DNA of 64,000 nt. It comes from Candidatus Omnitrophota bacterium (GTDB lineage: Bacteria > Omnitrophota > Gorgyraeia > Gygaellales > Profunditerraquicolaceae). The stretch covers positions 22,429 to 86,428 of the forward strand of contig JACQXK010000071.1 of assembly GCA_016208765.1 (NCBI GenBank), in the 5' to 3' direction. The position numbers were made by a program, and so were the translations under genes. Position 1 is the first letter of the stretch; every line of letters begins with the position of its first letter. Below are positions 1 through 63,995 of this stretch, one piece after another. The notes beneath the pieces are model-generated. The model was not told the DNA's origin and made no database searches. It was given only the letters and a program-made list of their open reading frames with translations.

Positions 1-706
1 GTAAGGCCACAAGTTTTGTTTTAAATCTTATTAAATCATCCGTGATCAGGTTAGCGGCGATAAAATCAAACTTTATTTTTGGGTTAAATTTGGCAAAATC
101 AATTGCCTTTAGATAAGCCGGCTTAATAGAATTAAGGCAGAAATTATTCTTTGCGGTCTTAATCGCCTGTCTGTCAAAATCAATGGCATATATCAGGCCT
201 GCTCCGCAACAAGCAGCAATTACTGAAAGAATGCCTGAGCCTGTCCCGATATCAAGAAAACTCAGGAACCTACCTTGTTTCTTGGCGATTAACTGTGCTA
301 CCATCTGAGTTGTCGGGTGCGTGCCTGTTCCGAAAGCAACAACTGTATCAATATAGATTCTTTTGAGCGTTTTATTTTTAGAGAAATCTCTTCTGCCTAC
401 AGGAATAACCCTAATCTTCTTTGTAATATTAAAAGGCTTGAAATATTTCTTCCAGCGAGTCTTCCAGTCGGAATCTTTTAAAAGTATCCTTTTAAGATTG
501 ACCCCCTTTAAGCCTGAAAGTGAAATTCTTCTTTGTAAACCCACAGCTTCTTTATGTGTTTTTGGAAAAACCGACAGAGAAACCTTATCCTTCTGTTTCT
601 TCTCAACAATCTCATCCTGTTTAATTCCACAATTTAAAAGTATAGAATTCAACAGTTCAAGAGCGCCTGAAGCATTCTTCCTTAAACTAAGCCTTAATTC
701 TATCAT
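1..706 (-). CDS. prmA: ribosomal protein L11 methyltransferase PrmA (C-terminus runs off window start)
   Basis: Minus-strand translation gives MIELRLSL...THPTTQMVAQ...LDIGTGSGILSVIAA...IYAIDFD (SAM-binding motif); ATG at 706; the overlapping plus ORF 363-1181 is antisense and spurious. Confidence 0.8.
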   Translation of the reverse strand, partial: MIELRLSLRKNASGALELLNSILLNCGIKQDEIVEKKQKDKVSLSVFPKTHKEAVGLQRRISLSGLKGVNLKRILLKDSDWKTRWKKYFKPFNITKKIRVIPVGRRDFSKNKTLKRIYIDTVVAFGTGTHPTTQMVAQLIAKKQGRFLSFLDIGTGSGILSVIAACCGAGLIYAIDFDRQAIKTAKNNFCLNSIKPAYLKAIDFAKFNPKIKFDFIAANLITDDLIRFKTKLVAL

Positions 707-709
707 CTA

Positions 710-2668
710 CTATTCGTATCTTAACGCCTCAATAGGATCAAGCCTGGATGCCTGCTTTGCCGGCCAGAGCCCAAACACAACACCAACAATTAATGAAAAC
801 ACCGTCGCAAGAATCACAGAAGATGCTGAAACAATCATGCTCCAACCGGCAATAAAAGTAACCAAAGCCGACACGCCTGCACCTAATAAAATTCCTCCCA
901 GCCCCCCAAAAACTGACATTAAAACAGCCTCAATCAAAAACTGCACCAGAATATCCCGGTTATTTGCCCCGATTGCCTTACGCAGGCCGATCTCGCGCGT
1001 GCGCTCGGTAACAGACACAAGCATAATGTTCATAATGCCAATTCCACCGACAAAAAGAGAAATTGCAGCAATAGCACCCAGCAATAAAGACATAGTTTTA
1101 GTCGTGGCCTCTAAAGTTTTTTTGATATCAGCCATATTCCTGACTTCAAAAGAATCCTCGTTGTCTTTTCTCAAACGATGAAGCTTTATGATCATTGTGG
1201 AGATTGACTCTGAAAGGGCGTCCATTGCCTGCGGGTCGCGGCATTCAATAAAAATATAGTCAACATACTGTTTTCCAAATAAACGATACATTGCGGTTGT
1301 CACCGGGATAAGAATAACATCATCCTGGTCGCGAAAAGTAGAGGCCCCCTTTTCAGGCAATACTCCGATTACCTGAAAATTAATTAAATTAATTTTAATT
1401 ACTTCCCCTATCGGATTGGCTTCTCCAAAAAGTTCTCTTGCCACAGTTGTGCCTAATAATGCCACTTTTTCACGCATCCTTACTTCTGATGCGTTAAAAA
1501 ACCTGCCGGCTTCCGGAGTAAATGAACGCATATATTCATAATCAACATCAACACCTTCAACCTGAGTATTCCAGTTTTTGTTGGAATAAACAATTTGTCC
1601 GCGCCCGGATACCGATGGGCTAACCCGGACAATTTCATCTGATAAATTACGCAAGGCATCCACATCCTGAAAAGTAAAACGGGTAACTGTGCCGGATTCA
1701 AGCGCTACTCCGTGTAATTTGGGAGAACCGGCCCTTAAAACCAAAAGGTTTGAGCCAAGCCCTGCTAACTGTTTCTCAATTGCCGCCTTAGCTCCTTGCC
1801 CCAAAGCAAGCATGGCAATCACCGCGCCTACTCCAATTAATATACCTAATATAGACAAAAATGACCTTAGTTTATGCGACCATATCGCAAAACAGGCTTC
1901 TCGCAGATAATCAACAAACTTTGCTCCTGTTGATGCTGCGGATTTTTTATCAAACTCTACGCTATCTGAAACAACCGGATTTGCTATAAACGCCTTACCG
2001 CTATTTGCCTCATCAGAAACAATCTGCCCGTCACGCATAAAAATAATTCTTTTCGCATGCTCGGCAATTTCTCTTTCATGAGTAACAATAATTACAGTTT
2101 TACCTTCCTGGTTGAGCTGTTTTAAAATATTTAAAATTTCTTCTTTGCTTTTAGAATCAAGGTTTCCAGTTGGTTCATCAGCAAGGATAATCGGAGGGTC
2201 ATTAACCAATGCCCTGGCAATAGCAACACGCTGCTGCTGGCCTCCGGAAAGCTCATTCGGACGGTGTGATATGCGATCTTTTAACCCGACAAGCTCAATT
2301 TTCTGACGAGCTTTTTCCCTGAGGTGCCTTTTCCCGGCGTAAATTAAAGGCAACTCCGCGTTATCAAGCGCTGTCAGCCGGGACAATAAATGAAACTGCT
2401 GAAAAACAAAACCAATTAACTGATTTCTGATAACAGCGAGCTTCTCATCGCTCAGGCCTTTAATCTCTTTATTGTCTAAAACATAAGTCCCTGCGTCCGG
2501 CCGGTCCAATAAACCAAGCACATGCATTAATGTAGATTTGCCGGAACCCGACGGGCCCATGATCGCCACAAACTCACCCGCAGAAATCTTCAGCGAAACA
2601 TTATTAAGGGCGCGCACTTCAGTATCACCCATCTTGTATGTCTTATGTATATTCTTAAAATCAATCAT
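710..2668 (-). CDS. macB: MacB-type ABC transporter (fused ATPase + FtsX-like permease)
   Basis: Walker [10 protein letters not shown], signature [15 protein letters not shown], Walker [13 protein letters not shown]-terminal 4-TM permease with large periplasmic loop; likely start [11 protein letters not shown] (ATG 2668) rather than ORF-track start 2782. Confidence 0.85.
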
Positions 2669-2669
2669 A

Positions 2670-3560
2670 TCAATTTTTTTGTTTATCTTCCTTTTTCTTT
2701 GCGCCAAACGGAGTAAACGGGCTTGAAGCAGAACTGCCCTTAGGAAGAGAATATTTTTTCTCCTTAACCAAAACAATATCATCAGTATTTATTCCGTATA
2801 TAACCTGAATATTCTTTTCGTCAGAAATACCCGTCTCTATTAAACGTTTTGTTGGTGCGTTCCCGGTAGCATCTTTAATAAACACATACTCCTTGCCATT
2901 CTCTTTAATTACCGCTTCGCCAGGGACAAGCAACGCTCCGTCAACTGACTTATTAACAAAATAAATGGTAGCATTCATCCCTGAACGAAAGAACGCAGGG
3001 GTCTCTTCCGGGAGCAAATCAACCTCATAAGTAGTAACGTTATTTACTGTTTTTGACTCATAATAAATATGGTCCACAACAGCCTTTATTTTTTCAAGCG
3101 GGTAAGCATCAAGGCTTAAAACCACCTCCTGACCAAGCTTTACTTTTCCGATATCAGTTTCATCAACCTGCGCCCTGACAATCAACTTATCCGAAAGGAC
3201 AATCACTGCATCGCTGGTAGTTACAGTTTGACCCGGCTGCGTCTTTGAAACGATCACTTCACCGTCTATCGGAGAAATTAGAGGGATAGCTTTATACACA
3301 TCTTTCCAGTATTCTAAAGATTTCTCTCCCTGGCCGCGAGCCGCATCCAACAGGGCCGCGCGCTCAGTAGAACTCATCCAGGCTAAAGTTTCTCCTGTTT
3401 TTACTTTTTGGCCTTCTTTAACCAGGATTTCTTCAACCCTTCCTCCTACCGGAGGCTTGATCTCCAGCCTGTTTTTAGGCAGCACCGAGCCAACAGTAGA
3501 AAATGTGCTCTGGACACTGCCGGAAAAAGGCAATCCAGCCTGCCTCAGCCAAAAGCGCAT
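2670..3560 (-). CDS. HlyD/MacA-family periplasmic adaptor (membrane fusion protein); N-terminus/start uncertain
   Basis: Lipoyl-like half motifs (VGGRVEEILVKEGQKVKTGETLA ... ISPIDGEVIV), beta-barrel/MP-domain-like C-terminus; ORF frame overlaps upstream OMF gene and no clear TM anchor found. Confidence 0.6.
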   Translation of the reverse strand: MRFWLRQAGLPFSGSVQSTFSTVGSVLPKNRLEIKPPVGGRVEEILVKEGQKVKTGETLAWMSSTERAALLDAARGQGEKSLEYWKDVYKAIPLISPIDGEVIVSKTQPGQTVTTSDAVIVLSDKLIVRAQVDETDIGKVKLGQEVVLSLDAYPLEKIKAVVDHIYYESKTVNNVTTYEVDLLPEETPAFFRSGMNATIYFVNKSVDGALLVPGEAVIKENGKEYVFIKDATGNAPTKRLIETGISDEKNIQVIYGINTDDIVLVKEKKYSLPKGSSASSPFTPFGAKKKEDKQKN

Positions 3561-4797
3561 CTGACTGAGCCAGTAAATAATTCTTTTTTGCCTTAACCAA
3601 GTCATCTTCAATAATAATCCAGTTATCAAATGAAATAAATCCGATTGAATATTGCGCCTCGGCAATCCTTGAGCGTTCTTCTGTAGCATTTAGTATTTGT
3701 TTCTGCACATTAACAAATTCTAAAGTATCCTGCAGTAAAACCCAAGACTGTTCAAGGCTTACAACAGCCGTATCCCTGACGCTTCTTTCGTTTTCACCTG
3801 CCTGCCTGAGTTCTGATTTTGCCTGTGACACCTGCGCAACCCTTAGGCCGCCTTCAAATATGGGCACGCTTAAACCCAAACCTGCATTCCATTGGTTGGT
3901 TGCCGGCGGCCAACTGGAACCAGCCTTGTCCACAGATGCTGAACCGATTAACTGAGGGCTGAAATTTCCATAAGCCGACCTGACATTGTAAAAAGCAGCC
4001 GCTTTTTTGGCAGCAGCCTCCAGGACTGAAGGGTTATTCTTTACTATCACTTCAAAGTCAGGTTTTATTTTTGCTGTATCGCGCACGACAAAATTCCCGC
4101 TGACAAGTATCGGCATGAACTCCTTACGGCCCATTTCTTTGGTTAACTGGCGCTGAAAAAATTCAACATTCCTCTTTGCCTGGGCAAGCTCATAATTCGC
4201 CTGGCTAAGGTTCGCCTGAGCAGTCAGCAATGCGCCTTTGTGTTCAAGACCGGAATAATAACGCATAGTAATCAATTCCAGATTATCCCGCCGTATCTTG
4301 ATAATCCCTTCCACGACCTTAACCAGTTCCTGGGCTTCCAGTAATTTTACAAAAGCATTACGCAGGCTTAGCCTTATTTCAGAAGAAGCAAAACGATAAC
4401 TTTGTTTAGCCGTCTCAATATTTTGTTTTGCCGTGTTAACTTCATTAAGTGTTTTAAAACCGTCAAAAATTAATTGTGAGCCGGTTGCCCCATAAGAATA
4501 CGAATCACCCGATGTGGCAGATGACAGGTTTTGCGAAGAAGATTTACCTGTTTTGGATGTAGAGGCGTTAAGATCTGCGTTAATTTGGGGATAAAGCGAG
4601 CTTGCCGTAATTGTCTTGGCTGATTTCTGCTGGCTGATGTTTTCAACAGCAGAAATTAAATCCGGATTATTAACCCTGGCTTCAACCAAACAACCCTTCC
4701 AGTCAAGCGCTTCTTCGGCACAAAGCCCCTGCGTTTGTTGAAACAATATGCTTAAGCTAAAAATAACTGTTACAAAAAGATTAAATATTATTTTCAT
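3475..4797 (-). CDS. TolC/OprM-family outer membrane efflux factor
   Basis: N-terminal signal peptide; two-repeat OMF architecture with coiled-coil-rich segments; C-terminal ...LLAEAGW resembles the OMF C-terminal LGGGW-type ending. Confidence 0.8.
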   Translation of the reverse strand: MKIIFNLFVTVIFSLSILFQQTQGLCAEEALDWKGCLVEARVNNPDLISAVENISQQKSAKTITASSLYPQINADLNASTSKTGKSSSQNLSSATSGDSYSYGATGSQLIFDGFKTLNEVNTAKQNIETAKQSYRFASSEIRLSLRNAFVKLLEAQELVKVVEGIIKIRRDNLELITMRYYSGLEHKGALLTAQANLSQANYELAQAKRNVEFFQRQLTKEMGRKEFMPILVSGNFVVRDTAKIKPDFEVIVKNNPSVLEAAAKKAAAFYNVRSAYGNFSPQLIGSASVDKAGSSWPPATNQWNAGLGLSVPIFEGGLRVAQVSQAKSELRQAGENERSVRDTAVVSLEQSWVLLQDTLEFVNVQKQILNATEERSRIAEAQYSIGFISFDNWIIIEDDLVKAKKNYLLAQSDALLAEAGWIAFFRQCPEHIFYCWLGAA

Positions 4798-7763: not shown

Positions 7764-8858
7764 TTATTTTAATTCAGCGCTTATATCAATAACGCTCTGA
7801 CGCACATCATCAATCGCAATTGAGCGTTCTAAGGCTCCGGGCATCAGGTCAAAACGCTTCAAATCAACTTTCTTTAACGCAGTATTTTCGTAAGTCTTAT
7901 AGTAAAGAACTTTATTAGTCAAATCCTTGATCACCACCCACTGCGCATAGCCCTCAAGCGTAATTAAAAGAGCTGGATTTTCTTTAATTACTCCTTTGGG
8001 AATATCCACAATATTCAAAATATGCTGCGCCAGATTGATTGCTTCCTCTGAATTCGCCGAAGGCAAGGCTTCGTCAACGCTTAGCGCCAAACGCACAAAA
8101 CGAGAAGGCGGCGTCCAATCTCCCGGCAAGCCAAGCATCCCGCTACCCACACCCGTCGGCTCAATCTTAATTCCACGGATCACCTTGTCTTTCTTGTCAT
8201 GCGCATCCAGATTGATATAATTCCGCAGGTTATTCAACTGATATGAAAATTCCGGGCGGTTAGTCATCACCCCCAACGGGTTATCATAAACCTTCACTTC
8301 TCCATCTATAAACTCAATAACCAGGTTCTTTCCGACAGCATCGTGCAACGCAATATGCAAATACAATTCACCATTTGCTTCTTTTAATTTGATGCCTGCG
8401 ACATTGATTTTAGGTAAAGCCTCTTTTACCTCATCAACATTCGCGAAATTACCCATAACCCAGGAACCAAAATCACTGATAGTTACGAATTTACCGGCAA
8501 TTGCTGGCTGATACTTGGCTCCGGTAAACATCAACGCATCAAAAGCAAGGCCTTTTTCATTAAAACCTTCCACATAGGAATTCTTGACATTAAAAGCGTC
8601 AATACCCAGAAAACCGTATTTATTAGTCCAACTGATACCTTTTACCCCCTTGTCATTAACGCTGGTAAACTGCCTATCCCGAGGAACAACTACTACATGA
8701 GAATGAAGATCAACGGCAAATTCCATAGAACGACCGATTATAATACTGCTATCTTTTGCTTTAATCTGAAAATCACTGCAGGCAAAAACTGCGTTAACCG
8801 ACAAAGCTAAAAATAAAATCAATGCTAACCAGAACTTTGTTGCAAGCTTATTCAACAT
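7764..8858 (-). CDS. Ntn-hydrolase, choloylglycine hydrolase / penicillin V acylase (linear amide C-N hydrolase) family
   Basis: Signal peptide followed by the nucleophile Cys (…AVFA|CSDF…), then GRSMEF (cf. GRNxD[FW]) and family-typical spacing. Confidence 0.6.
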   Translation of the reverse strand: MLNKLATKFWLALILFLALSVNAVFACSDFQIKAKDSSIIIGRSMEFAVDLHSHVVVVPRDRQFTSVNDKGVKGISWTNKYGFLGIDAFNVKNSYVEGFNEKGLAFDALMFTGAKYQPAIAGKFVTISDFGSWVMGNFANVDEVKEALPKINVAGIKLKEANGELYLHIALHDAVGKNLVIEFIDGEVKVYDNPLGVMTNRPEFSYQLNNLRNYINLDAHDKKDKVIRGIKIEPTGVGSGMLGLPGDWTPPSRFVRLALSVDEALPSANSEEAINLAQHILNIVDIPKGVIKENPALLITLEGYAQWVVIKDLTNKVLYYKTYENTALKKVDLKRFDLMPGALERSIAIDDVRQSVIDISAELK

Positions 8859-8944
8859 TGTTACCTCCTAGATCTTTTTTACAAACGCTTCAGATACAAC
8901 ATTGAAAACATCCCTATTTTGTGCGAAAAAACACTTGAATTATG

Positions 8945-9277
8945 TTAATGGTTCTTACGAGACGCAAAAATGAAATTGAAAAAATACTTTCTGAGAGACT
9001 CATCTGTAAATTTAAACTGGTTATCTCCTGTAAAATAACCCACGATTGCTTCTCGTAAACGGGCAATTTCTTTTAGGCGGGCAAAATTCTTTGTGCTATC
9101 TAAAGTCAAATCTATCAATTCAAGAGCGCGCTCAAAAGCCTGCTGCGCATATTCGGAATTGTTTTTTGACTGCCAGTTAAGGGCACGCTCAACCTCACTG
9201 CCGATATTTGCCATCTGCTCAATAAAAGACAGCTGATCCCAGCGTCCTGCTGCAAGGTTTTTATGCTGATAACTCAT
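8945..9277 (-). CDS. hypothetical small helical protein
   Basis: 110 aa; 4-nt start/stop overlap with upstream small gene (translational coupling). Confidence 0.4.
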   Translation of the reverse strand: MSYQHKNLAAGRWDQLSFIEQMANIGSEVERALNWQSKNNSEYAQQAFERALELIDLTLDSTKNFARLKEIARLREAIVGYFTGDNQFKFTDESLRKYFFNFIFASRKNH

Positions 9278-9615
9278 CTTTTAATCCATTTATTGACTAC
9301 GTTTACTATCTTGTTCCGGATAATCTCATTTTCAACGCCCCTGCTCTTATTCCCACGAGACGGACGCAAATTAATCATAGAGTCAAATTCAATAAACTCA
9401 TCGCCTTGCAATTCCGGATAAAAGTTGGTCCCCCAAAGACTATGTTGTTTTGAGCCATTTTCTAAAAGCAACGCCTCTAAATCTGGGTGCAGTTCAGCGT
9501 CAAGAGCAACAAGCTCCCTGTCCACATCCACAACTGCCTTTACAAGATTTCCAAAAGTATCCGTAGCCAATTGCTTAAGTTCATTAAGCGAAATAATCTC
9601 AATAATTATTTTCAT
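9274..9615 (-). CDS. DUF5674-like small protein
   Basis: ISLNELKQLA..FGNLVKAVVDV..ELHPDLEALLLENGS..LWGTNFYPE..EFDSMINLRP..N(K)SRGVEN pattern recalls DUF5674 family (from memory). Confidence 0.4.
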   Translation of the reverse strand: MKIIIEIISLNELKQLATDTFGNLVKAVVDVDRELVALDAELHPDLEALLLENGSKQHSLWGTNFYPELQGDEFIEFDSMINLRPSRGNKSRGVENEIIRNKIVNVVNKWIKR

Positions 9616-9711
9616 ACGCTGAATTATATCTCAAACAAAAGCTGCCTGCAACCAAATTTTACAAAAATTCGTTTGACTGAGTAGCTATTTAAGGTAAAAT
9701 ATTTAAACTAT

Positions 9712-9981
9712 TCCCCCTTAGCTCAGTCGGTAGAGCGAGTGGCTGTCAAATTGGCAGCTTCCGTGGGAAACCACGGTTGAAACTGCAGGAGAATTGCTGG
9801 AAGTCCTTACGGGATAATCAGCAGCCGAGCCCGCCGTTAAATTTTCGGCGAGGAAGGTTCAGAGACTATGCACCTGCTGCCTAAAGCGCAAGCTACGGTA
9901 AAGATATAGTCCACTTCCGAAAGTAATTTCGGGTTAAGTGTAACCACCAGGTCCGAGGTTCGAGTCCTCGAGGGGGAGCCA
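9712..9981 (+). tRNA. tRNA-Asn(GUU) gene interrupted by a group I intron in the anticodon loop (exons 9712-9746 and 9941-9981, CCA encoded)
   Basis: Exons fold into a cloverleaf: acceptor tccccct/aggggga, D-arm gctc-agtcggta-gagc, anticodon arm agtgg-ctGTTaa-ccacc (G34U35 from the 5' exon, U36 from the 3' exon), variable loop aggtc, T-arm cgagg-ttcgagt-cctcg, discriminator G + CCA. Confidence 0.8.
9747..9940 (+). ncRNA. group I self-splicing intron (194 nt, cyanobacterial tRNA-Leu-intron-like core)
   Basis: Exact R element GTTCAGAGACTA (9858-9869) and S element AAGATATAGTCC (9901-9912); P-like AATTGCTGGAAG and Q-like AATCAGCAGCC; P1 gctgt|c pairs with IGS ggcagc giving U·G at the 5' splice site; intron ends in G (9940). 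Confidence 0.8.
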
Positions 9982-9983
9982 TA

Positions 9984-10028
9984 AATAATACCCAGCTGAT
10001 TATTTATCAGCTGGGTATTATTATTTAA
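9984..10028 (+). terminator. rho-independent terminator after tRNA
   Basis: Perfect 15-bp stem aataatacccagctgat / atcagctgggtattatt with loop tattt, followed by a T-rich tract. Confidence 0.6.
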
Positions 10029-10128
10029 ACAGCACCAAACTAATCCTAATACAAAATCTTTCTCTTGCCTGCAAAAGGCTTTATGTTAAAATGAAACAAA
10101 TACGATTATTTCCGTAAAAAGGAGCAAT

Positions 10129-11100
10129 ATGTACGAAACATTTCTTTATACCTCGCAAAAGGAATTAAAAACAAACCTTACCCCTGATGAAATTCGCGAA
10201 GCCTTAAAAGACGAAAATAATCTCCTCTGGGTAGATATGAAGGACATTGACGATGCTGATATTGATATCCTCACTGAAATCTTTTGTTTGCATCCCTTGA
10301 CCATTGAAGATTTCATCATGGTAAACGCCCGCCCGAAAATAGAAAAATTTAAAGATTATATTTTCCTCGTCGCCTTCTCTATGGAGTCGCATGATAAAGC
10401 AAAAGGAAGAATCAACACCTTGGAGCTTGATTGCTGTTTAGGCAAAAACTTTCTTATTACCACACACAGCGATACCATGAATTCCCTTGCTGTAAGCAAG
10501 GAAAGGATCAAAAAATTATCCCCGATTATTATGAATGGAGCAGATTTTCTTCTTTATTCCCTTATTGAATGCATTGTGGACAGCTACTTCCCGATCATTA
10601 ACGAATTTGATAATATGGTTGACGAGATGAGTGACGAACTATTCAAAGACCCTTCAAATGAGACTCTCAAGAAAATATACAGCCTGAAGAATGAAATCAT
10701 GTACCTGCGCCGTACGATCGGCCCACAGGCAGATGTAATCGGCCTGGTTGCCCGAGGAGATTTTCCTCTTGTTAGCGCGTCTAATATGATTTATTTCAGG
10801 AATATTCATGACAATCTGATAAGGCTAAACGATATCGTTGGAACTTCGCGGGATATTGTAACAGGGGCAATGGAGGCTTATGTTTCTGTTGTCTCAAACC
10901 GTTTAAACGAAATCATGAAAACCCTTACCGTGATTGCCACGATCATGATGCCTTTAACGCTTATTGCAAGTATCTATGGCATGAATTTTAAACACATGCC
11001 TGAACTTAACAGCAAATTAGGATATCCGACAGTAATTGGCTTTATGGTTATCTCAATTATTGCAATGCTTGCTTATTTCAAACGTAAAAAGTGGATTTAA
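10129..11100 (+). CDS. corA: CorA magnesium/cobalt transporter
   Basis: 323 aa; C-terminal 2 TM with the YGMNF signature (IYGMNFKHMPE). Confidence 0.9.
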   Translation: MYETFLYTSQKELKTNLTPDEIREALKDENNLLWVDMKDIDDADIDILTEIFCLHPLTIEDFIMVNARPKIEKFKDYIFLVAFSMESHDKAKGRINTLELDCCLGKNFLITTHSDTMNSLAVSKERIKKLSPIIMNGADFLLYSLIECIVDSYFPIINEFDNMVDEMSDELFKDPSNETLKKIYSLKNEIMYLRRTIGPQADVIGLVARGDFPLVSASNMIYFRNIHDNLIRLNDIVGTSRDIVTGAMEAYVSVVSNRLNEIMKTLTVIATIMMPLTLIASIYGMNFKHMPELNSKLGYPTVIGFMVISIIAMLAYFKRKKWI

Positions 11101-11112
11101 AAAACCTTAGGC

Positions 11113-13041
11113 CTAAATCATCCGCCCTTCAAGCTCAATAATCTTCTTACCTATTTCAATAAGGATCTTTTCTATTTCTTTCATGCGCCTGCCGTAATCG
11201 CGGGCAGTTTCTTCGTCGCGGAAAATCTTGGGGTCTGAAAGGGCGCGCGCCTTGGCATAACTCTCAAGCTGCAAGCCTTCTCTTTCTTTCTCTAATTTTG
11301 TAATCTCAGTGCGGATAGTAGAATTACTGGCTTTACGCTTCTTCTCTTCATCTTTAATCTTTCTTTCTTCTTCTCTTTTCCTGTGTCTTTCTTCTTCTAT
11401 TCTTAACTTTACAGGGTCAGCTTTTGGTTTTGAACGGAGAGAGACAGCTTCCTGCCTGTCTCTTGCCTCAAGGTAATAATCAAATGCCCCGGGAAACTTG
11501 CGCACATTGCCGCTTTTAACCTCATAAACAACATTTGCCACCTGGCGCACAAAATAAATATCATGGCTGATAAAAACAACTGTCCCCTCATATTCATTCA
11601 AGGCCCTAACTAAGGCCTCAACCGCATCCACATCAAGATGTGTTGTCGGTTCATCCAATAATAAGAAATTCGGGGGATTAATCAAAAGCTTTGCCAAAAT
11701 TAAACGGCTTTTCTCACCGCCGGATAATACCTTGACCTTTTTATCTGCATCATCTCCGGTAAATAAAAACGCCCCTAAAACTGTGCGGATAGTTTCTTCA
11801 GACATATAACCAGGTGCAGCAGAGTATGCCTCGCGTAAAACCGTATTTTCAGGGCTTAACACATCAAGCCGTGTCTGTGAAAAATATCCTGTATCAACAT
11901 TGTGCCCGGCAATGCGGTTACCGCAATCAATATCCACCACGCCTGCCATAATCTTTAAAAGCGTAGATTTACCGGCGCCGTTTTCTCCGGCTAAAACCGC
12001 TTTCTCACCCTGAGTAATCTCAAAATCAAAATCCTTATAAACCTGGATCTCGCCGTAACTTTTAGAAATTTTCTCAAGCTGCATCACTCTGTGCCCGCTT
12101 CTTCTTGTCGGAGGAAAATGAAAACTTTTAATGCTTTCCCGCGTATCCGGCGGAAGTTCCACTGCCTCTTTCTCAAGCCGCTCAAGGGCTGTGCGCTTGG
12201 AGCGCACCGCAGCAGACTTATTTGGCTGGGCGTGAAAACGCGCTACAAACTCTTCAAGTTGCTCTCTCTTTTTTTCCTGCTCTTTAAACTGTTTTTCTAA
12301 GTGAATACGCCTTTCTTGCTTGACTTCTTCATAATGTTCGTAATTACCCCGCACTTTAAAGATCTTACCGTGCTCAAGGATCAAAGTATAATTAGTAACT
12401 TCTGTCAAATAAGCCTTGTCATGGGAAATCATGATAAATGTGCCGTCAAAAGAAGCCAGATAATCCTTAAGCCACAATGCTGCATTAAGGTCCAAGTAGT
12501 TTGTTGGCTCATCTAAAAGAAGCAAATCATACTGAAATGTCAAAAGCTTTGCCAACAAAGTGCGCATCTGCCATCCGCCGCTTAGCTGGGTAATCGGGCG
12601 GTTAAAATCTTTTTCCTTAAAGCCAAGCCCGGCAAGAATCTTTTTTGCTTTGTGTTCAAGCTCAAAGAATCCCAATATTTCCAGCTCATGTAAAGCCTCG
12701 CCATACCTGTGGCTTGCCGCCTCATTTTTCTCTTCAAGTTTCTCTTTTTCCTGCTTAAGGCGCAATATCCTCTCATCTCCTTCGGTCAACTCCGAGAGCA
12801 CCGTGCGCTCTGAGTGGAATTTTGACTCCTGGGCGAGATAACCGATATGCGTATTTTTATTTATTTTAATTTCTCCAGAGGATGGCTCAAGTTCGCCAAG
12901 GATCAAAGAAAATAAAGTACTCTTGCCAGACCCGTTAGGGCCGATCAAGCCAATTTTTTCTCCTTGATTAATACTCAGCGATATTCCTTCAAAGAGGGTT
13001 TTCTTACCGTAATTTTTTGAAACATTAGATATACTGATCAT
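11113..13041 (-). CDS. ABC-F family ATPase (tandem ABC domains, no TMD; Uup/YheS/EttA-like)
   Basis: Two Walker A motifs (GPNGSGKST, GENGAGKST), two LSGG signatures, charged coiled-coil linker and C-terminal coiled-coil tail. Confidence 0.85.
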   Translation of the reverse strand: MISISNVSKNYGKKTLFEGISLSINQGEKIGLIGPNGSGKSTLFSLILGELEPSSGEIKINKNTHIGYLAQESKFHSERTVLSELTEGDERILRLKQEKEKLEEKNEAASHRYGEALHELEILGFFELEHKAKKILAGLGFKEKDFNRPITQLSGGWQMRTLLAKLLTFQYDLLLLDEPTNYLDLNAALWLKDYLASFDGTFIMISHDKAYLTEVTNYTLILEHGKIFKVRGNYEHYEEVKQERRIHLEKQFKEQEKKREQLEEFVARFHAQPNKSAAVRSKRTALERLEKEAVELPPDTRESIKSFHFPPTRRSGHRVMQLEKISKSYGEIQVYKDFDFEITQGEKAVLAGENGAGKSTLLKIMAGVVDIDCGNRIAGHNVDTGYFSQTRLDVLSPENTVLREAYSAAPGYMSEETIRTVLGAFLFTGDDADKKVKVLSGGEKSRLILAKLLINPPNFLLLDEPTTHLDVDAVEALVRALNEYEGTVVFISHDIYFVRQVANVVYEVKSGNVRKFPGAFDYYLEARDRQEAVSLRSKPKADPVKLRIEEERHRKREEERKIKDEEKKRKASNSTIRTEITKLEKEREGLQLESYAKARALSDPKIFRDEETARDYGRRMKEIEKILIEIGKKIIELEGRMI

Positions 13042-59920: not shown

Positions 59921-60103
59921 GATTTTATAGTGTTGCGTTGGAAGGCATTGCTAGACAAATCTGATTTTCTGTATTCAAATATTTGTTTGTAGCTATCGGG
60001 TAATTTTAGGGACACAATGCGCTGTCCCCGGAACTTCAAAACTTCATCAAAGGCCTGGCACCTTGGGGAATGTCACCGGGACCTCCTATGCCTATAATAC
60101 AAC

Positions 60104-62671
60104 TTATTGACAGATTTTTACGGCTGGAATACCTATTTTATTTTCTATTCTCTGTTTATCTTTATAATCAATATGGTGCAGAGAACAGTGATCAACAATC
60201 ATGAACTTCATAACCCTTTTTGCTGTTTCAGAAAAATCTTCTTCATGCAGTTTTTCGACTATTTTTTCAATCTGAAGATTTTTCTTGTACCACATCAGAA
60301 TTCCATGTAGCACTAAGAAAAAGGCTGGGTTATTTTCTTTTTCGCATACATTAACAGCAATTTCAGTTAACTTGTCGGAGCCCAATGAATGCACAATCTT
60401 ATAAATAATACCACATACCACAAAAATATTTGAATTCCAAAATATCTTTTTTGCTATTTTTTCAAGCTCCTCTTCACTCAGTTTCTTATTTTTTGTTTCA
60501 TTTTCTTTTATAATTTTCTTCAATCTGTCTGATATAAAAGTAATTATAGTTTTTTGTCCTTCCTTATCTTTTATTATTGCGAAGAAAGAAGATAAAATCC
60601 TTAAATGAAGTTTCATGCCTGCCTCAAAAATTTCTTCTAGTTTTGGCTTCTCTAAAGAACCAGACCGATTTTTGATAATACACCCCATTACTTCTACTGT
60701 TCTTATGGCTCGTCTTAATTCCTTACCCAATGAATCTTCTAGGTCTTCATCTCTTTGATTTTGTTCCTTTTTCGATTGTTCATGGTGGTCTTGAATCTTT
60801 AGTCTTCCATTTCTTTCCATCTCAGGAGTTACATTATCGGGTGGCAAGGCTGCCTTAATAATACTCTCGACTTCTTCATCAAAGAATTTAACTTCCTCTT
60901 TTGTTAAAGTTGCCTCTTTATATTTATCAAATAAACATAACGCATTAAGATTAATATCGTTAAGGATATTCTCATTTTTCGAATGATGTACCATAAAAAC
61001 TGCAATATAAGCATTTTCGTTAACATGTAGATTATTCATTATCTTTTCTATTTCTTTTTTATTCTCCTCAAAATGTTCTGCGATATGTTTAGCAGCAAAA
61101 AAGTAATAAAGATACGAATGTGTGAATGAATAGTTATTAAGACTACCTCTTGAAACAATCTGGATTAGATTTTTAAGTAAAGTTGCGGTTTTAATAGGAA
61201 AATTAAATTTCTTCTGATAAAATTCCATAAATTTTGCAAAATCATCAACGGATAACTCTATTTTCTTTTCTTTGTAAATATAGAAAGCGAATTCAGTTAA
61301 GAAATTAATGTAAATATCAATTTCATCATTTTTTACTCCCTGTTTCCTTAAATAAAAGAATATTAAAGCCTGATAACAGTAACCCTGAGATGTTATTTCT
61401 TGATCAAGAGGTATTGCAAATGTATCGTAAGTAACTATAGCTGACAAAATAAAAAAAGGATACGCAGGAAGAATGCCCTTATCAATATTCTTGCCTAAAA
61501 TACTATCTGTCAGCTCTACCTTTTCATCAATGCTTTTGTAGCTATCAACGGATTTTATTTCTCTATTTGCCAAGCTTGTCCATTTTTTGATTAATTCGCA
61601 TCTTAACGAAGGCTTAAATTCCTTTATCTTAAAGTGGTTAAATGCTCCAATAAGCTTTTCGTCTCTGACATTTAAACCAAAAATGTCATCCACAATAACG
61701 ATACAATGAGAATAGACAGATAAAGCCTTAATATTCTTTTCCTTGTCTTTTGCGAGATAAAAATCATCAACTATCGGCACTATCCTCTCTTTATCGATTT
61801 GATCTAAATTGATACCCTCATATTGTTGATGAAATAAATAAGTTATTTTATTTTCAATCTTTCCCTTAAATTGATTCTCGCTATCATATACATAAACTGG
61901 AACAAAATTATGTTTTCGTAGCTCTTTGAAAATCATTTTGCACAATGCTGTTTTTCCTGACTGACCATCTCCTGCTATAAGAATCCTGGGATAATCCAAA
62001 AGATTTCTAATTAGTTCCTCTGAATTCATTTCTGCTTCGTATTCTCGTAACGCATTGAACTTACCCAAAGGGGGATACACAAAAATATCATCTAAAGAAA
62101 CTATTTCCTTCTGCGAGTGTGCCTTTGTTAGCATCTCAGCATTTTGTAAAAAGCTTTCAAATTCTCCTGTAACCTTAAGTTGTCTTATCTTTGCCTCTTT
62201 TTCAATTACCGTTTTCAGCCCTTCATAAACATTCTGCCATCCTTCGTCATGGTTTTTAAAATTAGAAACGGGGTTTCCATCGGTAGGCAAAACTAATAGC
62301 TTAGAAATGTCCACATCATCTGGCCATCCACAACTTGATAGAATAATTGAAACAACAGCTATTCCTTTCTTTTTTCTAAGCTCCATTGCTTTTGCTTTTT
62401 CCTTCAAGCAATTAGAAGAATTTAAAAAATTGGCAGATACAAATAGGCATATTATATCTACATCTTCTAAATTGTTATCGATTTTGCTCTGGTAATCATC
62501 ACCCGGTATAATCTTACGATCATACCATTCAATTATTGAATCATTATTCTTAAGAGGCGCTATATGTTTCCTAAATTGCTCAATATAAGGATTCTTAGTA
62601 AGGTTATCCTCGTGCGAGTATGCGATAAAAATCTTTAGTTTTGCATTTTCTTCCATTGTACTAACCTCCAT
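60104..62671 (-). CDS. TIR-domain protein fused to STAND/NACHT-like P-loop NTPase and long helical C-terminus (antiphage-type architecture)
   Basis: TIR blocks KIFIAYSHEDN … ICLFVSANFLNSSNCLKE; Walker A ILIAGDGQSGKTA; Walker B-like CIVIVDD; ~450-aa helical C-terminus. Confidence 0.7.
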   Translation of the reverse strand: MEVSTMEENAKLKIFIAYSHEDNLTKNPYIEQFRKHIAPLKNNDSIIEWYDRKIIPGDDYQSKIDNNLEDVDIICLFVSANFLNSSNCLKEKAKAMELRKKKGIAVVSIILSSCGWPDDVDISKLLVLPTDGNPVSNFKNHDEGWQNVYEGLKTVIEKEAKIRQLKVTGEFESFLQNAEMLTKAHSQKEIVSLDDIFVYPPLGKFNALREYEAEMNSEELIRNLLDYPRILIAGDGQSGKTALCKMIFKELRKHNFVPVYVYDSENQFKGKIENKITYLFHQQYEGINLDQIDKERIVPIVDDFYLAKDKEKNIKALSVYSHCIVIVDDIFGLNVRDEKLIGAFNHFKIKEFKPSLRCELIKKWTSLANREIKSVDSYKSIDEKVELTDSILGKNIDKGILPAYPFFILSAIVTYDTFAIPLDQEITSQGYCYQALIFFYLRKQGVKNDEIDIYINFLTEFAFYIYKEKKIELSVDDFAKFMEFYQKKFNFPIKTATLLKNLIQIVSRGSLNNYSFTHSYLYYFFAAKHIAEHFEENKKEIEKIMNNLHVNENAYIAVFMVHHSKNENILNDINLNALCLFDKYKEATLTKEEVKFFDEEVESIIKAALPPDNVTPEMERNGRLKIQDHHEQSKKEQNQRDEDLEDSLGKELRRAIRTVEVMGCIIKNRSGSLEKPKLEEIFEAGMKLHLRILSSFFAIIKDKEGQKTIITFISDRLKKIIKENETKNKKLSEEELEKIAKKIFWNSNIFVVCGIIYKIVHSLGSDKLTEIAVNVCEKENNPAFFLVLHGILMWYKKNLQIEKIVEKLHEEDFSETAKRVMKFMIVDHCSLHHIDYKDKQRIENKIGIPAVKICQ

Positions 62672-62690: not shown

Positions 62691-62868
62691 TTATTTTCTG
62701 CCAACTAATTCATCAATTGAAATTTCAAAAAAATCTGCCAATTTAGAAAGCGTCCCAATAGTTGAATTTTTGCTTTACCAGATTCGATTTTAGAAATCGT
62801 ATTATAGATTACGGGGACATTCCCGAAAGGAACACTTCCCCTTATAAAAAATTGAACCACAATCTATT
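62691..62868 (-). pseudogene. degraded XRE-family HTH gene remnant
   Basis: Frame 1 encodes …TLSKLADFFEISIDELVGRK*; shifted frame upstream encodes …NTISKIESGKAKI; no ATG, internal frameshift/stops. Confidence 0.3.
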
Positions 62869-62939: not shown

Positions 62940-63995
62940 TCATTTTCCAGATTTGGTTCGGTTATCTTGTTTGCACAACATTTGGCAATTCACTGCAACA
63001 GTCTTTCCACTTTCATGCCAAGGCTTTATATGATCAGCTTCCATTTCTTCTATATCAAAGCGCTTCTTGCATTTTACGCATTTACCTTTTTGTCTTTCGT
63101 ATGCTTCTCTCTTTTGTTTATCTGTAAATGCCCTAATATTTAAAAATTTTTCATCTCGTGTTAAAACATATGGATAAATGCCTGATTTTTTTGTTACATC
63201 TTCATCCTGCATTAATTCTTTGATCTCGGCCTCCAGTTTGCTAGCGCTCATTTTCTTATCTTTGAATTCGTTATACAGCTCACCCCATTGCACGCTATTC
63301 ATCTCTCGGCGATAATTTATAAAAATCTTTCGCACCCAAGCAATCACATCTTGAAAATACTGCCACAATTTTTCAGCATTCTGATCATGCTGATGTTTAG
63401 CCATATAATCTTCTATCTGGCCGTCGTTGATCCAAAAAAGTGCGATTTCTAAATATTCCTGCCGGATTGGCGTACCGCTGACTAATTGGCCCCCGTCATT
63501 TGCTAACCGGTATGCCGCACAATTTGATTTGCTAAATTTTAATTTCGCGTCACTAAGCCACGGTCCGGTATAAACAGCGTTACGGATTTCCTGGTCGTTA
63601 ACTTTTTCTCCGTAGGTGTTGATAATCCTAAACCAATCTAGCCGTTCTTTGTCCGTGCCTTCGCAGAAGTAAATCATTAGTTCATAATCAAAAATTTTAT
63701 CCTGTTCCTCTTTCGTTAGATTATGAAAATATCGGTCGTTCAATGAAAAATCTCCATTAACATATTGCCCGATGCTGATGGTGCGCTGTTGGCCGTCCAG
63801 CATCTCGTAACCGCCATCTTCTCTGATCATCCAATACATCACATTCAACGGAAAGCTATTTTTGATAGTTTCTATCACGGCATTGCGCTGTTTTTCTTTG
63901 TAAACAAATTCGCGCTGATATTTCGGGCGGATATCAAGCTTGCCGTTATAAGCCATCACGCCCTCTTCGGCGCTGTCTTTATAGCCCTCAATCAC
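62940..63995 (-). CDS. DUF262 (ParB/GmrS-like NTPase-nuclease) + C-terminal HNH endonuclease; GmrSD-like type IV restriction-type protein
   Basis: DIRPKYQREFVY … LDGQQRT (DUF262 DGQQR motif); C-terminal CVKCKKRF…ADHIKPWHESGKT…NCQMLCKQDN (HNH); N-terminus abuts window end. Confidence 0.75.
   Translation of the reverse strand: MIEGYKDSAEEGVMAYNGKLDIRPKYQREFVYKEKQRNAVIETIKNSFPLNVMYWMIREDGGYEMLDGQQRTISIGQYVNGDFSLNDRYFHNLTKEEQDKIFDYELMIYFCEGTDKERLDWFRIINTYGEKVNDQEIRNAVYTGPWLSDAKLKFSKSNCAAYRLANDGGQLVSGTPIRQEYLEIALFWINDGQIEDYMAKHQHDQNAEKLWQYFQDVIAWVRKIFINYRREMNSVQWGELYNEFKDKKMSASKLEAEIKELMQDEDVTKKSGIYPYVLTRDEKFLNIRAFTDKQKREAYERQKGKCVKCKKRFDIEEMEADHIKPWHESGKTVAVNCQMLCKQDNRTKSGK

Follow-up and report, generated by a model that had tools for sequence, protein, structure and literature searches.

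We analyzed a 64,000-nucleotide stretch of an uncultured Candidatus Omnitrophota (Omnitrophica) genome, referred to below as the window, and within it a reverse-strand gene encoding a TIR domain fused to a STAND NTPase. We consider it likely that this TIR-STAND gene encodes a single-protein, NLR-like antiviral STAND in which infection-triggered oligomerization would activate a TIR NADase and thereby cause abortive infection. The gene and its parts are given here with residues numbered, as throughout, in the 855-residue frame that begins at the upstream ATG at 62671.

60104..62656, minus strand: TIR-STAND coding sequence, 850 residues counted from M6, the probable start, and the stop codon.
62177..62638, minus strand: TIR domain, residues 12-165.
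62399..62401, minus strand: codon of E91, the putative catalytic glutamate, in 'SSNCLKE', placed by alignment to solved TIRs.
61622..61999, minus strand: P-loop nucleotide-binding domain, residues 225-350.
61949..61972, minus strand: Walker A motif GDGQSGKT, residues 234-241, placed by family conservation.
61763..61783, minus strand: IVPIVDD, residues 297-303, the favored Walker B motif, by conservation and as the third strand after the P-loop strand.
61685..61702, minus strand: IVIVDD, residues 324-329, more probably the sensor-1 strand, the fourth strand in the model.
60872..61621, minus strand: helical and winged-helix region of the STAND module, residues 351-600, which includes the nSTAND_NTPase4 match at residues 472-526.
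60107..60733, minus strand: all-helical C-terminal domain, putative sensor, residues 647-855.

The 855-residue single-gene architecture described in a first-pass annotation of this DNA was present as an open frame of 855 codons at 60104..62671 of the minus strand, but two ATGs lie in frame at a distance of five codons, and its start is likelier the second. The true product is most likely the 850-residue protein beginning at M6, because a GGAGG sequence at 62665-62669 lies 8 nt upstream of the second ATG (62656), the NCBI copy of the protein (P0001, 'MAG: Candidatus Omnitrophica bacterium, TIR domain-containing protein', MAG denoting a metagenome-assembled genome) has 850 residues with 100% identity, and the first methionine of the homologues is the equivalent of M6. 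The identical protein was found in two further assemblies of the same organism.

Beyond its TIR domain the protein belongs, by sequence comparison, to the nSTAND4/DS-8/PDC-S60 family, the shared portion of which we call the chassis. The NCBIfam model DS8_antiphage (NF053861) aligned residues 157-848 to model positions 300-994 of 994 (E 5.9e-129), and the PADLOC candidate model PDC-S60 aligned residues 146-849 to positions 168-889 of 906 (E 2.4e-62). The chassis is thus common to the PDC-S60 model and the window protein, whereas the first ~167 positions of the model do not align to the window TIR, the model probably having been built on members with another N-terminal domain. A literature search gave no paper describing PDC-S60. 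DS-8 is DefensePredictor system 8, one of those validated in the DefensePredictor study, and is a single protein that combines an SMPDL3A-like metallophosphatase with an NTPase of the NACHT type. Protection of E. coli by DS-8 was shown in 2026, and defense is lost upon mutation of catalytic phosphatase residues or an NTPase residue, so that both the N-terminal enzyme and the NTPase are needed (PMC13092281). The NTPase and the entire C-terminal region of DS-8 are homologous to those of the window protein. However, the DS-8 N-terminus is the metallophosphatase of ~300 residues in place of a TIR of ~155 residues, and because the N-terminal enzymes differ the output chemistry would also differ.

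A HMMER search with residues 150-855 gave a chassis family of 2307 clusters at 50% identity with E <= 1e-3 (1002 clusters at E <= 1e-30), the N-terminal extensions of which fall into distinct length classes. When 122 representative N-termini were clustered together with the window TIR, 90 of them joined it in one BLAST cluster; assignment of these 90 to the TIR class is based on the BLAST cluster and the E91 column, not on Pfam. Representatives of the other classes had NTase-conflict, Metallophos (for example, in P0204), PGAP1-like hydrolase, PNP_UDP_1, Mrr_cat, SIR2_2, Trypsin_2 and HD-CE domains, plus one further class of ~190 residues. Of ten divergent relatives with this chassis that were scanned, seven exceeded the cutoff of Pfam nSTAND_NTPase4 (PF24406) with 28-45 bits, and most homologues of 58-86% identity have a precomputed match to this Pfam family. 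As read from these sequences, the family joins a constant sensor-switch chassis to many enzymatic heads that can replace one another, a pattern that marks an immune STAND. The TIR form is the majority of the chassis family in this survey, and tests so far have covered only the metallophosphatase form, which is in the minority.

The N-terminal TIR domain of the first-pass annotation was upheld by Pfam, in which TIR_2 (PF13676, 38.8 bits, cutoff 28) and TIR (PF01582, 34.1 bits, cutoff 21.3) both matched residues 14-117 above their cutoffs, and the protein has the flavodoxin-like TIR fold. By use of phmmer, 'SSNCLKE' was aligned with 'SSWCLDE' of the plant TIRs 3jrn and 7xoz and with 'SDWCWDE' of the CRISPR-associated TIR Cat1, and therefore E91 falls at the position of the catalytic glutamate. 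None of 40 close homologues differed at E91, and glutamate also occupies this position in 81 of 82 divergent family members of the TIR class. The best TIR-specific defense model was PADLOC Thoeris ThsB1 (E 1.7e-30, 104 bits, residues 13-164), and a weak match was seen to ThcB4 of Thoeris type III. ThsB, the plant TIRs and Cat1 are all NAD+-consuming. By analogy to these proteins the window TIR is most likely a NAD+-cleaving enzyme that would use the putative catalytic residue E91.

In the AlphaFold model the strands of the P-loop domain are predicted at residues 229-233 (b1), 257-261 (b2), 297-301 (b3), 323-327 (b4) and 345-349 (b5). The earlier assignment of Walker A to GDGQSGKT was correct: G234 and G239 are each present in 113 of 113 family members, K240 in 111 (hence 98-100% conservation of these three residues) and T241 in 104. 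The earlier assignment of Walker B to IVIVDD is less secure. That motif is present at residues 324-329, but IVPIVDD at residues 297-303 is the better conserved, with D302 being aspartate in 112 of the 113 members and D303 aspartate or asparagine in 110, whereas position 328 is aspartate in 94, asparagine in seven, serine in five and threonine in two. In the usual 5-1-4-3-2 core the strand order would also place Walker B on residues 297-301 and sensor 1 on residues 323-327. These arguments are opposed by weak RecA-like profile matches to PDB sequences (FlaH, 0.004; XRCC3, 0.02), the Walker B motifs of which align to IVIVDD. Hence, on the basis of conservation and predicted strand order we tentatively favor IVPIVDD (D302/D303) as Walker B. 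The choice between D302 and D328 matters for picking a Walker B mutant.

The top Foldseek matches of the model were NLRC4, NOD2, RPP1, NLRP3 and Avs4 (8dgf, 1.8e-5), and the nucleotide-binding domain, helical domain and winged-helix module resemble those of solved NLRs. The P-loop module is, as modeled, a STAND NTPase with an NLR-like fold. The most conserved segment of the protein, residues 401-475 (about 61247-61471), lies in the helical and winged-helix region. Family-wide invariants are P402 and P405 in the GxP-like sequence 'GILPAYPFF', G430, C432 and Y433 in 'EITSQGYCYQ' (residues 425-434) and the pair H562/H563, of which H562 is conserved in 91% and H563 in 96% of the family and which, by spacing only, may be likened to the MHD histidine. 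T427-x-x-G430-x-C432-Y433 constitutes a near-invariant loop pattern, and residues 417-431 fall below 50 in predicted local distance difference test score (pLDDT) in the AlphaFold model despite the high conservation of the surrounding segment. A charged and poorly conserved linker (residues 601-646) precedes the C-terminal domain. The helical, sensor-like C-terminus proposed previously was found in that residues 647-855 are all-helical, but the repeats also proposed were not supported, as no recognizable repeats were seen in the C-terminus.

The region had been noted by eye to be richer in AT than its surroundings, and the gene GC content is indeed 0.314 versus a window mean of 0.393 (standard deviation 0.023), which is about 3.4 standard deviations below the mean and the lowest of all non-overlapping 2568-nt segments of the 64 kb. 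The GC content at third codon positions (GC3) is 0.27 versus 0.35-0.44 in five neighboring genes. The AT-richness of the gene exceeds chance, and as the dip in GC coincides with the gene itself, the AT-rich 'islet' is essentially one gene. TIR-bearing full-length homologues of 58-86% identity were found in Omnitrophica, Kryptonia, Nitrospirota, Atribacteria, Petrotoga and Methanosarcinales/Methanoperedens. A scan by peptide patterns of one genome per species, the counts of which are a lower bound, gave 80 loci from 87 confirmed matches (38-68% identity) in many bacterial phyla, including lineages of the candidate phyla radiation (CPR), as well as in methanogens, Thermoplasmatales and DPANN archaea. 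In every host examined (loci L008, L026 from Desulfospira joergensenii, L034, L045 and L060 from Methanobacterium ferruginis) the gene had a GC content of 0.27-0.32 and a GC3 of 0.19-0.29, whereas the flanks were 0.38-0.54, the highest value being that of the gammaproteobacterial locus L034. Because the gene is AT-rich whatever the flanks of its host and its loci are spread over many phyla, it has, from sequence, the character of a horizontally transferred gene.

The neighbors of the TIR-STAND gene in the window are a GT87 gene, a helix-turn-helix (HTH) pseudogene and a restriction-modification (R-M) pair, of which the following are given as context.

62940..63995, minus strand: GmrSD_N (DUF262) plus HNH endonuclease gene, by Pfam and a REase_II match.
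62691..62860, minus strand: XRE-type HTH pseudogene, frameshifted and 5'-truncated, by HTH_3 and HTH_26.

The first-pass annotation had called the nuclease type-IV-restriction-like. The GmrSD_N plus HNH nuclease is present, but its strongest defense-model match is REase_II (E 4.4e-125), and in another contig of this organism (L007, 3-2151) an EcoRI-methylase-family gene (351 residues) is followed by the GmrSD_N plus HNH gene and then by the TIR-STAND gene. Owing to the methylase partner directly upstream and the REase_II match, the nuclease probably serves as endonuclease in a type II R-M pair rather than being a solitary type IV enzyme. The nuclease has 363 residues in L007, and the window probably ends before reaching its start. 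The window can be annotated mainly as holding a defense islet made up of the R-M pair and the TIR-STAND gene.

The decayed HTH gene of the first-pass annotation was also real: with one frameshift corrected, its peptide passed the cutoffs of HTH_3 (26.6 bits, cutoff 23) and HTH_26 (25.2 bits), both matches being confined to the C-terminal half of the profile (for HTH_3, positions 24-55 of 55). The frameshift lies between '...ISKIESGKAK' and 'NSTIGTLSKLADFFEISIDELVGRK', after which the frame stops, and the N-terminal half is missing. We considered this gene as a regulator of the system and rejected it, as the remnant is seen in the contigs of this organism only and is absent beside homologues in other organisms; it is thus a bystander.

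Open reading frames (ORFs) within three genes on either side were surveyed at 52 loci. Of 280 neighboring ORFs, 226 were unique to one locus and hence there is no conserved partner gene. The only recurrent neighbor clusters were HsdS-type specificity subunits (10 loci), large DEAH-box HsdR-like proteins (7 loci) and HsdM (4 loci). The top PADLOC and Pfam models among 146 immediate neighbors were type I specificity and methylase subunits, Eco57I/MmeI-type methylases, HSDR_N, N6_N4_Mtase, AAA_5 (McrB-like), RhuM and ResIII, with HEPN, Fic and resolvases also being present. TIR-STAND homologues are often inside or beside R-M operons, and other homologue loci lie amid HEPN/MNT and HicAB pairs. These contexts included no conserved non-defense setting, the only recurrent neighbors being R-M components.

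Given these data, we propose that at rest the NTPase module would keep the protein an inactive monomer. A cue of infection would be read, probably by the helical domain at the C-terminus acting jointly with the conserved helical/winged-helix region, and its recognition would permit nucleotide-dependent (ATP) oligomerization. The oligomer would then gather the N-terminal TIRs so that composite NADase active sites relying on E91 arise between them, and consumption of NAD+ would leave an infected cell that no longer supports virus replication (abortive infection). The direct support comes from the domains, the intact catalytic-type residues, the homology to DS-8, effector swapping, the solo gene, the R-M association and the horizontal transfer, whereas we infer the trigger, oligomerization, NADase chemistry and abortive outcome by analogy to TIR-NLRs and Avs proteins.

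A number of observations weigh against this proposal. The DS8_antiphage score of 431.5 bits is below the equivalog cutoff of 790, owing to the different N-terminus. Pfam NACHT (PF05729) and NB-ARC (PF00931) gave no match to the protein at E <= 1, and the matches to ATPase_2, nSTAND3, NPHP3_N, AAA_16 and nSTAND_NTPase4 (17.7 bits, E 0.004, residues 472-526, cutoff 27) were all below the Pfam cutoffs. A literature search gave no experiment on any TIR-bearing member of the chassis family, and the host is an uncultured Omnitrophica MAG with no phage at hand. Scans of the locus for promoters and terminators gave no signal beyond shuffled expectation. The tryptophan of the usual W-x-x-x-E motif is N87 in the window TIR and is variable in the family consensus, and among PADLOC models it is the signal-producing ThsB TIRs that are nearest to this TIR. 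The putative sensor is small (~210 residues), a search for a specific structural relative of the C-terminal domain found none, and the sensor is as conserved as the other domains (mean pairwise identity of 0.64-0.71 across all domains), which is not usual for an arms-race sensor. Relatives at 50-60% identity occur in bacteria as well as archaea, with DPANN and CPR lineages among them. Given a small, repeat-free and conserved sensor, the near-invariant loop and this spread across bacteria and archaea, the sensor might read a cue common to bacterial and archaeal infections, for instance a small molecule, some feature of nucleic acids or a host factor conserved in all organisms, and not the fold of one particular viral protein, although we regard this as unlikely.

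The nearness to ThsB is the basis of the main rival explanation, in which the TIR would make a messenger of the cyclic ADP-ribose or histidine-ADP-ribose type that switches on an effector encoded elsewhere. ThsB1 being the best TIR-specific model and the weak ThcB4 match both point in that direction. However, we consider such a signaling TIR improbable: neither a ThsA-like gene nor any other conserved partner turned up within three ORFs at the 52 loci or within ~10 kb in this organism, and the same chassis slot holds self-sufficient killing domains (Mrr nuclease, SIR2, protease and lipase-like), which argues that the N-terminal slot holds a terminal effector. A survey of Thoeris systems set aside the TIRs of Avs proteins and of standalone proteins as likely NAD+-depleting effectors (10.64898/2025.12.03.692087). 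Lack of the conserved tryptophan would also fit a TIR having some other function, be it nucleic-acid cleavage, formation of 2',3'-cyclic nucleotide monophosphates as by some plant TIRs, or a role as an oligomerization scaffold only. We assign this a similarly low probability, as the essentially invariant glutamate suggests catalysis over a scaffold and the characterized TIRs closest in sequence and fold (ThsB, plant TIRs and Cat1) use NAD+.

Two further explanations concern the gene as a whole. The window copy could be silent or non-functional in this host, as a recently acquired AT-rich gene that lacks working expression signals. Its GC3 is far below that of the host, the promoter and terminator scans were negative, the adjacent HTH gene is a pseudogene, and other copies are decaying, such as that of an uncultured deltaproteobacterium (L029) with its ~1.15 kb insertion. 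The ORF is nevertheless full length with all conserved motifs intact, it has a good Shine-Dalgarno sequence, and the identical protein recurs in the two further assemblies, making a silent copy quite improbable. It seems highly improbable that this is no immune gene but a STAND-type regulator or selfish, addiction-like cargo that travels with R-M modules. In favor of that view, Lee et al. left 391 of their 589 STAND clades outside the defense-associated class (10.64898/2026.01.04.697583), and composition and distribution show mobility but by themselves are no proof of defense. Against it, homology to a system that protects E. coli from phage extends along the whole chassis, the N-terminal repertoire is that of typical immune effectors, there is no DNA-binding output domain, and the recurrent neighbors are R-M genes.

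As a probable single-protein antiviral STAND, the window protein can be compared with Avs/AVAST proteins, with which it shares an effector, a STAND NTPase and a C-terminal sensor encoded by a single gene, as well as swappable effectors and a defense-island context. PADLOC-DB 2.0.0 contains AVAST models, and none of the PADLOC Avs/AVAST models matched at E <= 1. By sequence, the protein does not belong to the named Avs families (Avs1-5). The antiviral STAND domain order claimed in the first-pass annotation therefore stands in regard to the NLR-like fold and the DS-8 homology, but the protein falls outside the named Avs families. Most Avs sensors are large arrays resembling tetratricopeptide repeats (TPR), a likeness that the sensor of ~210 residues in the window protein lacks. 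TIR effectors have been reported in Avs proteins, with a mechanism described as unknown in 2024 (PMC11350192). The 2026 STAND survey of Lee et al. gave 198 defense-associated clades of 589 and clustered only sensors of at least 400 residues (10.64898/2026.01.04.697583).

The plant TIR-NLRs RPP1 and RPS4 and the animal NLRs NOD2, NLRC4 and NLRP3 are only 9-15% identical to the window protein, which has no leucine-rich repeats; the likeness to plant and animal NLRs is one of architecture and fold, not of family membership. The window TIR is nearest to ThsB1 among the defense models, but Thoeris is a two-gene system in which a separate effector reads the TIR-made signal, whereas the window TIR and its STAND sensor form a single polypeptide. 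A Thoeris-like two-gene system was considered and rejected, no partner gene having been found at the locus and no conserved one within three ORFs in the 52 loci.

Much of this was already known, as the chassis is in NCBIfam, PADLOC and Pfam and TIR effectors on antiviral STANDs have been reported. The gene is a credible but fairly ordinary defense gene of modest surprise value. What is new is a well-supported TIR-bearing example of the DS-8/PDC-S60/nSTAND4 family; taken by itself, the window mainly yields the annotation of a defense islet in an Omnitrophica genome. The family is convenient for study in having a chassis with at least nine effector types, a spread across bacteria and archaea at unusually high conservation and a compact sensor. 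It lends itself to asking by what means a single sensor module can operate several kinds of effector and to which cue that sensor responds.

Several loci gave further observations on mobility and decay. Positions 1-4300 of loci L001 and L002 are identical and contain a 152-residue ORF, the TIR-STAND gene and two small ORFs, after which the sequences are unrelated, and therefore the same 4.3 kb cassette is found in two genomic contexts. In L029 the homologue is split between residues 722 and 731 by the ~1.15 kb insertion (10167-11318), the opposite-strand ORFs of which resemble, by eye, a split IS630/Tc1-type transposase. Two loci of one Nitrospirota MAG (L080 and L081) carry the gene over two contig ends (residues 11-422 and 421-855), which is probably an assembly break within the gene. 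Distant relatives (25-31% identity) are found on plasmids, and on a conjugative Lactococcus plasmid the distant homologue again adjoins a type II R-M system. A search of 50,697 phage records for phage carriage gave no match. The sole match in a viral collection was at 8001-10580 of an IMG/VR contig (L090; IMGVR_UViG_2523231085_000001), at the extreme end of a 57-kb predicted viral region, and this copy may adjoin a prophage rather than be inside one.

Terminal inverted repeats of a mobile cassette were also sought at the window locus and rejected as marginal, the flank-to-flank local alignment giving only E = 0.054. A 16-nt inverted match of 88% does flank the gene, at 60063-60078 (plus strand) and 62812-62827 (minus strand), its right arm lying within the HTH pseudogene. 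Its core, GGGAATGTC[A/C]CCG, is unique in the window, and each arm then continues with CTATAATAC.

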